Shown here: positions 22,119 through 60,522 of the stretch, piece by piece
Numbering within the stretch: position 1 is the first letter of the stretch
Layout: every line of letters starts with the position of its first letter
Source: Octopus vulgaris
Taxonomy: Eukaryota
DNA: 64,000 bases
Assembly: GCA_951406725.2 (NCBI GenBank)
Contig: OX597838.1
Coordinates: 8,618,001-8,682,000 of the forward strand
Direction: 5' to 3'
The notes under the pieces: generated by a model
The model's database searches: none
The model's input: only the letters and a program-made list of their open reading frames with translations
What the model was told of the DNA's origin: nothing
Program-made: the position numbers and the translations under genes

Positions 22119-22510
22119 TATAGGACACCACAAATAAACGTAGAACACAACGAGAACGAAAACATAAAATCAAACAAGGAAACGGACTTTTTTAACAACG
22201 AAAAAACAGAGTACAGGTCAAACAATACAAGGAAAATTCCCCTTCATCAGCTGCCCCTGGTTCGACTCAATGCGTGTTTCGAAGGTAAGGGCAGAACACG
22301 GCCAGACCGAAGCAGTCCTTCCTGCAAAAGGAATTAAGTAAAATTATTTTGCAGAGGGGTAAAACAAGTGACAAGAACAGGACGTAAAAGCAATACAAAT
22401 GAAGAAAAAACAGTAGAAAAAACAGTACAAATAAAGAATAACAGGACAGGGAACCAACAATAAGGGCTTTTTTTAAGGCCTAGACGGTGGAAAAATTAGA
22501 ACGCATGTGA
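22116..22510 (-). mobile_element. Short U-rich element carrying a non-circularly permuted hammerhead (22230-22321)
   Basis: Minus strand: GAAGG..CGUG-UU-CUGCCC-uua-CCUUC-GAAA-CACG..GGGCAG-CUGAUGA; abuts (TA)n. Confidence 0.75.
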
Positions 22511-59231: not shown

Positions 59232-59319
59232 GGCTGGCCGAGTTGGAGCAAATATCAGAATTGAACAGCCGAAATTTGCTATGATGATTCGGTGTCTGAC
59301 TGAAGATTGAAGGCTTCGA
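59232..59319 (+). ncRNA. Non-circularly permuted hammerhead ribozyme candidate with kink-turn (copy 1)
   Basis: GGCUG/CAGCC, GCAAA-UA/GAAA-UUUGC, UCAGA/UCUGA-CUGAAGA, k-turn with UAU bulge and GA/GA. Confidence 0.75.
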
Positions 59320-59365
59320 ATGATTTGTCTGTGTTCCGTGTTCGTCCCTTCCTGTATTTCACGTT

Positions 59366-59453
<88 letters not shown>

Positions 59454-59539
59454 AAAAGACCAAAAGGGTACGGGCGTCGCTATAAATATATGTATATGTA
59501 AAAAGGAATCTAATGTGCTTGGCTTAGATTTTCCTTGGG

Positions 59540-59625
59540 GGCTGGCCAGATCGGAGCAATCTCAAGATTAATCAGCCGAAATTGCGAGGATGATCCGGTT
59601 CTCGACTGAAGATTGAAGGCTTCGA
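59540..59625 (+). ncRNA. Non-circularly permuted hammerhead ribozyme candidate with kink-turn (copy 2)
   Basis: GGCUG/CAGCC, GCAA-UC/GAAA-UUGC, UCAAGA/UCUCGA-CUGAAGA, k-turn with GAG bulge and GA/GA. Confidence 0.75.
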
Positions 59626-59939
59626 ATGTCCCGTCCGTGTTTTTTGTATCGTCTTCTAAATGTTTCACGTTCTTGTCCCAGTTTGTATTTTTTACATATT
59701 CATATATATATGTAAGTATATATATATAATATATATATATATAAGAACAGAGAGGAAAGAAAGAAGACAGTATAAGGGTGACGAAAAGAAGGAGAAAAAA
59801 GTTGTGCAGAATTTAGATACATACTACCAAGGTGAGCAAATGGTGTACGTACATCGCTAAACGTATATATAAACCCCAAATACGAAATAAGAACGTAACG
59901 GACGACAATAAAAACATACGGACATACATATATATATAT

Positions 59940-60320: not shown

Positions 60321-60522
60321 AGGACGCCATGATAGATCGTTAGCTACTACACGCATTTTTTTCTCTCCTTGTTTTTTTCTGTGTATCTTTCTGTCGAAGA
60401 GCATAGGCTCGAAACGTAAAATACTATTTCTATTTCTATTCCTGAGCGTTATACTAATACATTTGTTTGTTTTGTACTCCACCTACCTCCGTCTTTTGTT
60501 TATTTTCGTAAACTTTCCCTTT
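60321..60522 (+). mobile_element. ~200-bp HHR-bearing short element flanked by (TA)n
   Basis: 60386-60421 UCUUU-CUGUCGA-a-GAGC-auag-GCUC-GAAACGUA-AAA. Confidence 0.82.

Follow-up and report, generated by a model that had tools for sequence, protein, structure and literature searches.

The window analysed here is a stretch of 64,000 nucleotides of Octopus vulgaris DNA (contig OX597838.1, positions 8,618,001 to 8,682,000 of the forward strand). On its plus strand, it carries two neighbouring copies of an element that combines the conserved blocks of a hammerhead ribozyme (S, G and C) with a kink-turn (k-turn). Copy 1, a member of family A, starts with the 5' strand of stem II (59232..59236, G10.1 being 59232), which pairs with 59266-70. 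The non-bulged strand of the k-turn follows (59237..59247) and is made up of one strand of the NC helix (59237-45) and of G2n/A1n (59246-47). Block S (59248..59260) contains a stem III strand (59248-52), U16.1 (59253), A17 (59254) and a stem I strand (59255-60); by analogy, cleavage is predicted between 59254 and 59255. Block G (59266..59279) comprises the 3' strand of stem II, the GAAA motif (59271-74) and the second stem III strand. It leads into the bulged strand of the k-turn (59280..59293), with the loop UAU (59280-82), G1b/A2b (59283-84) and the other NC strand (59285-93). The 3' strand of stem I and the CUGANGA core (59294..59306, core at 59300-06) and the 3' arm of a helix X (59307..59322) complete the copy, which is 5'-truncated and has lost the 5' partner of helix X as well as hairpin Y.

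Copy 2 belongs to family B. Its hairpin Y (59503..59539, plus strand) lies directly 5' of G10.1 and is clipped at its 5' end. The 5' strand of stem II (59540-44), the first NC strand (59545-53) and G2n/A1n (59554-55) occupy 59540..59555, and block S, the linker and block G occupy 59556..59585, with U16.1 at 59560, C17 at 59561, a predicted cut between 59561 and 59562, and GAAA at 59578-81. The bulged strand of the k-turn (59586..59599; bulge GAG 59586-88, GA 59589-90, NC strand 59591-99) is followed at 59600..59628 by the stem I strand, CUGANGA (59606-12) and the 3' arm of helix X (59613-28). Stem I carries one private mismatch (C59603), and copy 2 escapes a strict descriptor. Ahead of copy 2, an inverted fragment of a family-B unit is found on the minus strand (59456..59500; blastn, 87% over 45 nt); an inverted 5' fragment directly before a copy is an arrangement described for Penelope-like insertions. 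A copy of the distant family J (22237..22364, minus strand) shows the helix order X-Y-II-NC-III-I, with a non-standard junction between stem III and the NC helix.

The first-pass annotation had located both k-turns correctly, including the bulges, the GA opposite GA and both arms of the adjoining helix, which in copy 2 continues beyond the 5 bp originally quoted, past one C.A mismatch, to 9 positions. It had overlooked the 5' and 3' extension of the element (helices X and Y) and the truncation of both copies.

Rfam gave no match in the window at the gathering score, and by E-value simple-repeat noise only. Three other identities were rejected. A box C/D snoRNA (AUGAUGA ... CUGA) does not agree with the change of the letters beyond GA in families C, E and H, and no Rfam family fits. 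Copy 1 has what we take to be tRNA-like traits, namely an A-box-like stretch (59235-46), a T-loop-like UUCGAAU and a likeness of CUGAAGA to the tRNA-Phe anticodon loop; a tRNA-derived SINE head was dismissed because ARAGORN found 0 genes, N7 varies, and families E, H and J lack these motifs. A SECIS element was set aside since its helix orientation is, on our assumption, the reverse of that of the octopus element. Finally, what are presumably ordinary minimal hammerhead-like remnants of Penelope type, separate from the family studied here, occur in the window at ~60390-60420 and elsewhere in the genome (L053 near 900, L002 near 1300).

Repeat families and the full-length element

The two window copies, each truncated at the 5' end, belong to a superfamily of repeats that is dispersed and partly tandem in the 2.8 Gb source genome. 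A first look gave 1280 and 2778 candidates for the families of copy 1 and copy 2, respectively, and a whole-ribozyme pattern blind to the k-turn retrieved 6138 matches for families A-D, including a few double counts, with 0 matches in the control. The repeat is non-coding and tandem, with one hammerhead per unit. Head-to-tail units are often ~690-850 bp long (691-720 in A, 755-779 in B, 844-850 in D) and are set in (TA)n runs. Family D is young (840 near-identical matches, control 0) and family E is older (11% diverged). The latter was exposed by patterns forcing a change in the 3' strand of stem II (202 matches, control 18; 538 matches, control 3). Family H (836 matches, some from other families; control 15) and family J (2107 matches, control 0) were found, like family E, with patterns that required the core. 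A search for family F returned two decayed copies only. The rare older families F and G (L211, L212, L213, L249) have other stem II sequences and have apparently kept the 3-nt bulge and GA/GA.

For families A-D, 80 regions holding 87 copies were fetched, covering most of 100 places among the matches listed. A k-turn-blind descriptor, built from the hammerhead blocks and stems I and III, found 152 distinct S-G-C matches in 262 own-genome loci, which had been fetched for holding the repeat. It found none in 119 metagenome loci with the same core letters (among the matches listed) and none in 30 block-shuffled windows. In 128 of the 152 matches, stem II is supplied from the 5' side with 5/5 pairs, and 111 of these 128 carry the 3-nt bulge and GA/GA.

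Read in the 5' to 3' direction, the full-length element begins with an X arm, hairpin Y, a stem II strand (G10.1), an NC strand, GA, a stem III strand and U16.1-H17. It continues with a stem I strand, a short linker, the other stem II strand, GAAA, a stem III strand and the 3-nt bulge, and ends with GA, an NC strand, a stem I strand, CUGANGA and the second X arm. The block order is S-G-C, as in non-circularly permuted hammerheads (Eckert 2023). Stem III is connected through the k-turn to the helix that links stems I and II; one side of this helix runs straight into the stem I/CUGANGA strand while the other emerges from the stem II strand.

Conservation and proposed role of the k-turn

Conservation was followed in 130 copies, 87 from the listing of families A-D and 43 from family E (40 loci picked by eye). 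After 8 copies had been dropped, 122 indel-free copies were aligned in a register anchored on GAAA and stem III, since MAFFT put family E one column off. GA/GA is intact in 8/8 copies of family A, 52/54 of B, 9/10 of C, 30/40 of E and 0/10 of D, and the tandem G.A/A.G pairs at 1b.1n and 2b.2n are found in 99 of the 112 copies of A, B, C and E. In family H, sampled at 31 loci of which 5 misfit the H length and 7 are truncated, GA/GA is intact in 16 of the 19 copies with a 5' part.

Because most copies decay neutrally, changes were divided into those inherited by clades of at least 3 copies and private ones. In the tree of the 122 copies, GA/GA shows 1 inherited vs. 18 private changes and differs both from the other unselected columns (97 vs. 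207; Fisher p=0.018) and from the unpaired columns (30 vs. 54; Fisher p=0.011). The majority letters of families B, E and H are identical at all four GA/GA positions and at 0/44 other non-core positions, and in each of these families the helices nevertheless pair. Sequence comparison thus argues that the GA/GA k-turn is kept by selection, in agreement with the earlier reading of a standard k-turn conserved across homologues. That reading had been made to depend on GA/GA and on the 3-nt bulge alike: GA/GA is kept, while the letters of the bulge, which sits directly after a Watson-Crick C helix, vary freely (16 inherited vs. 19 private changes). On conservation, the reading therefore withstands the check that had been set to refute it.

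The helices covary. Inherited changes on both sides of a pair number 3 in stem II, 6 in the NC helix, 5 in stem III and 3 in stem I. In 12 hand-picked copies of families A-C, pairing holds in 93.5% of the cells and both sides have changed in 25 of them, which 0/500 shuffles match, a test that kinship alone can pass since relatives share changes. In these copies, both-side changes affect 8 of 23 pairs, including 4 of the 9 pairs of the NC helix, so that the covariation first noticed beyond the GA pairs is borne out.

Two families depart from the consensus. In family D, U replaces G2n and the NC register is shifted; the predicted stability is 3.4 kcal/mol greater for an extended stem III that carries a simple 4-nt bulge (-11.6 vs. 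-8.2). By analogy with T. thermophilus Kt-23, which has A.U at 2b.2n and still folds according to the available text of PMC2790904, family D may possess a k-turn of non-standard type. Hairpin Y of family D is also lengthened by an internal duplication (L117:1440-1500). In family J, the helix order is unchanged and a larger loop that includes GA forms the junction between stem III and the NC helix; of 30 distinct copies, 13 are full, and 4 of these 13 pass a loose k-turn test. As families D (840 matches) and J (2107 matches) were amplified without one, a canonical k-turn is not needed for amplification. Every copy examined has a bend-prone junction at this place, and most, though not all, form it with a canonical k-turn. 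Replacement of a k-turn by another kink is known, from the parts of PMC5061560 at hand, in RNase P and in the lysine riboswitch.

What would the kink do? A single hairpin would be made up of stem III and the helix on the far side of the k-turn. Its loop would pair with the strand immediately 5' of the hairpin to give stem II, and with the strand immediately 3' of it to give stem I; the latter strand would then supply CUGANGA. With both flanks pairing into the hairpin loop, two pseudoknots would result. In the hammerhead structure, stem III stacks under stem II, and the rise per base pair is 2.8 A. A back-of-envelope estimate puts the distance between the NC foot and the end of stem II at 64-70 A for a straight arm, 56-61 A for a 120-degree bend and 28-30 A for a 50-degree one. 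Because the NC foot and stem II are joined without a linker, no arrangement other than a sharp kink is compatible, and even a gap of 28-30 A calls for frayed end pairs. In this rough model, a k-turn bent to about 50 degrees would bring the hairpin foot round to lie next to the loop, which both flanks could reach with 0-1 nt links. The proposal that the kink delivers the stem I/CUGAAGA and stem II strands to the core is consistent with this geometry and with both flanks abutting the helix beyond the k-turn. We consider it probable that the k-turn serves as the hinge in the architecture of a rearranged hammerhead borne by a non-coding, retrozyme-like mobile repeat.

A further suggestion, that cleavage could depend on an L7Ae/Snu13-family protein, fared less well. 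Here, the k-turn would be a Snu13/15.5K (L7Ae-family) site whose occupancy is required for folding and cleavage, gating the ribozyme on a host protein. Most k-turns do bind L7Ae-family proteins (PMC8191799, available text), and U4 and box C/D k-turns need protein to fold (PMC5689011, likewise in part). According to the accessible parts of PMC4382518 and PMC8191799, however, G at 3n or C at 3b, together with C-G at -1, allows a k-turn to fold in Mg2+ alone. Families A-C, to which the window copies belong, have this ion-folding signature, with U.G at 3b.3n in 69/72 copies and C-G at -1b.-1n in 67/72. The protein-dependent signature (Watson-Crick, G.U or U.U at 3b.3n plus a poor -1 pair) is absent from A-C and partly present in H only. 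Copy 1 has in addition a G.U at 4b.4n, a pair shown to aid the folding of A.G k-turns (PMC8191799, PMC4382518, available text). Family E has C.C at 3b.3n (34/40), also an ion-folding feature, and the weaker U-A at -1 (37/40), which marks a weak folder; U.G and C.C both predict the N1 class (PMC4914095, PMC8191799, in the parts available). Family H, with U.U at 3b.3n (17/19), U-A at -1 (16/19) and loop letters of RAU/RGU type (AAU 13/26, AGU 9/26), resembles box C/D k-turns and is predicted to be a weak ion folder. Further points against gating are that L3 takes all four letters across subfamilies, that families D and J were amplified without a standard site, and that tertiary contacts alone can fold k-turns (PMC5061560, in part).

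From these letters, the k-turns of the two window copies are predicted to fold in Mg2+ alone and are unlikely to depend on protein; Snu13 binding in vivo is plausible for any of the k-turns. Obligatory gating appears improbable for the element as a whole. Equally doubtful is the narrower version, in which family H, through its box C/D-like k-turn, requires host Snu13 for cleavage and its sister families fold with ions or have replaced the kink. As far as the available sources describe them, ion-folding k-turns such as Kt-7 and the riboswitch k-turn share with the octopus element the 3-nt bulge, the tandem G.A/A.G, C-G at -1 and G at 3n. They likewise mediate a long-range fold; the octopus k-turn would do so within a small ribozyme predicted to be of self-cleaving type.

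A hammerhead core divided between A9 and G10.1

The letters of the hammerhead core, CUGANGA, GAAA, U16.1-H17 and G10.1-C11.1, are all present, surrounded by covarying stems I, II and III. With a core-blind pattern (5575 matches), CUGANGA was intact in 97 of 100 among the matches listed, counted by eye, and N7 varies. U16.1 has 0 inherited changes in the tree of 122 copies, and H17 is G in 0 of 141 parsed copies.

The unusual feature is the origin of the 5' strand of stem II, which in copy 1 comes from upstream and not from behind A9, with compensatory versions in families E, H and J. As stem II is supplied from the 5' side, A9 and G10.1 are parted by two extra helices: A9 would lead into helix X, X would adjoin hairpin Y, and Y would lead into G10.1. 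In none of the 152 descriptor matches does a stem II strand lie 0-2 nt behind A9. In family E, the 5' strand of stem II changes along with the 3' strand at three pairs, and families H and J have a third and a fourth version of stem II, both supplied from the 5' side. The 12 nt behind A9, which differ by subfamily, pair with the upstream arm as helix X. This pairing includes compensatory changes, namely a swap from A-U to U-A in one subfamily and extra U-A pairs in family C; in an energy matrix of seven families, a weak cross-family test, the own partner is best in 3/7 rows. In families H and J, the X-Y insertion recurs with unrelated sequence, X starting at or next to A9 and Y ending at G10.1.

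Taken with the k-turn, these features lead us to favour, with some reserve, an active hammerhead of a topology so far undescribed, in which a four-strand core with A9 and G10.1 unlinked and two pseudoknots clamped by a k-turn would drive some ten thousand retrozyme-like genomic copies.

Another possibility is that the fold and the k-turn are kept for some other job, such as recognition by a reverse transcriptase, ligation or circle stability, the hammerhead with its core split at A9/G10.1 being inactive or very slow. We found no published precedent for a helical insertion at this step, the one related report being of a single extra nucleotide. Such a nucleotide is common at 9/10.1 in Penelope hammerheads (PMC4209133, available text), so that the step tolerates change. 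Nested folding, which cannot represent the two pseudoknots, does not favour the active set of helices: the ViennaRNA minimum free energy (MFE) structure of either window copy lacks the k-turn arm. In six full-length copies, the probability of this arm varies between ~0 (family D) and 1.0, a consequence of its competition with the pseudoknotted stem II; X and Y are present in the MFE of full copies. In the MFE of copy 1, a competing helix uses the segment behind A9. Helix X sequesters this very segment, which misfolds the truncated copy, and the window copies may therefore be dead. An argument against an inactive hammerhead is that families with almost nothing else in common retain the catalytic letters, a non-G H17 and G10.1-C11.1. 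We regard a non-catalytic role as slightly less probable still than protein gating.

The reading as an ordinary type-SGC hammerhead, in which stem II would come from AGGCU behind CUGAAGA and GA/GA would be an incidental internal loop, is largely refuted and very improbable: the 12 nt behind A9 do pair with the 3' strand of stem II in families A and B (-5.0 and -4.85 kcal/mol), as in the competing helix of copy 1, but a 5-nt insertion is required. Family C has no such pairing left (median +0.8 kcal/mol), and what remains of it in families D (-2.4) and E (-1.2) is weak. In E, H and J, covariation links the 3' strand to the 5' strand; the segment behind A9 covaries with the upstream arm, and GA/GA is selectively conserved.

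Relation to known ribozymes and mobile elements

The closest relatives of the rearranged, k-turn-containing hammerhead are the type-SGC hammerheads HRIMA-1 and its variant (Eckert 2023, PMC10085705). As far as the available text goes, they have in common with it the order S, G, C and a short linker from S to G, and the counterpart of the NC helix of the octopus k-turn is their fourth helix, 'I', which connects stems I and II at their distal ends. In the octopus element, a k-turn joins this helix to stem III on both strands, unlike in type SGC; in the SGC-1 and SGC-2 constructs, as read from the oligonucleotides, 0-2 nt on one strand connect stem III with helix 'I'. The words 'kink' and 'k-turn' are absent from the available text of that paper, and 'kink' from its supplement. 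Eckert 2023 considered the stem III-helix 'I' link to be the sole point not obviously compatible with the crystal structure. Block C, unbroken in type SGC, is split by two helices at A9/G10.1 in the octopus version. The same paper, in the parts available, assumed a gap between A9 and stem II of at most 1-2 nt, and the constructs have one U between A9 and G10.1. The octopus element is a type-SGC-like hammerhead that fails one defining feature, the unbroken block C. Lastly, type SGC is described there from metatranscriptomes only, with none in genomes of known organisms, whereas the octopus element is a high-copy animal genomic repeat.

No natural k-turn hammerhead or genomic type-SGC family was found in a literature search that was thin on subscription papers. 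If our reading is true, this would be, as far as that search reached, the first non-circularly permuted hammerhead in an animal genome and the first hammerhead of natural origin to be organised around a k-turn. It would break the assumption of an unbroken block C behind the six-permutation scheme, in which case descriptor searches for hammerheads would miss a whole class, and it would give a concrete answer to a question raised by Eckert 2023, namely in what way stem III and helix 'I' could be joined at their distal ends. The subfamilies, with U.G, C.C and U.U k-turns and two natural departures, would offer a ready series for studying k-turn folding rules with cleavage as readout, and the element a natural scaffold for L7Ae-responsive ribozymes.

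By analogy, the element appears to behave like a non-autonomous, retrozyme-like repeat with Penelope-type insertion marks. Metazoan non-LTR retrozymes, as presented in the accessible text of Cervera and de la Pena 2020 (PMC7229834), are likewise non-coding, tandem or dispersed, with one hammerhead per unit and thousands of copies; they carry type I hammerheads in units of 150-450 bp, whereas the octopus element is permuted and its units measure ~690-850 bp. With Penelope-like elements (PMC4209133; PMC8557442, both in part), it shares 5' truncation, partial tandems, an inverted 5' fragment and (TA)n targets, and with their pLTR hammerheads the tolerance at 9/10.1 and the invariant G10.1-C11.1. 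There, minimal type I motifs flank an RT-endonuclease ORF, unlike in the octopus element. Self-cleavage after H17 would cut tandem transcripts into monomers, which would then become circles, and mobilisation would be carried out by a Penelope-like reverse transcriptase.

For the loci holding the repeat, no RNA record was listed. The family-A unit is present in assembled contigs of four sequencing runs from four organisms. One of these contigs (738 nt, run X1, compared with L028:700-1700) closes on itself at exactly one unit, 707 nt, which fits tandem DNA and circular RNA equally. Among 18 long ORFs near copies, 14 were scanned: none has a Penelope domain, and no autonomous partner element was found. 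One of the 14 contains an Exo_endo_phos_2 endonuclease domain. This 502-aa ORF (L037:2-1507, minus strand) lies beside a family-B copy and is probably an unrelated LINE.
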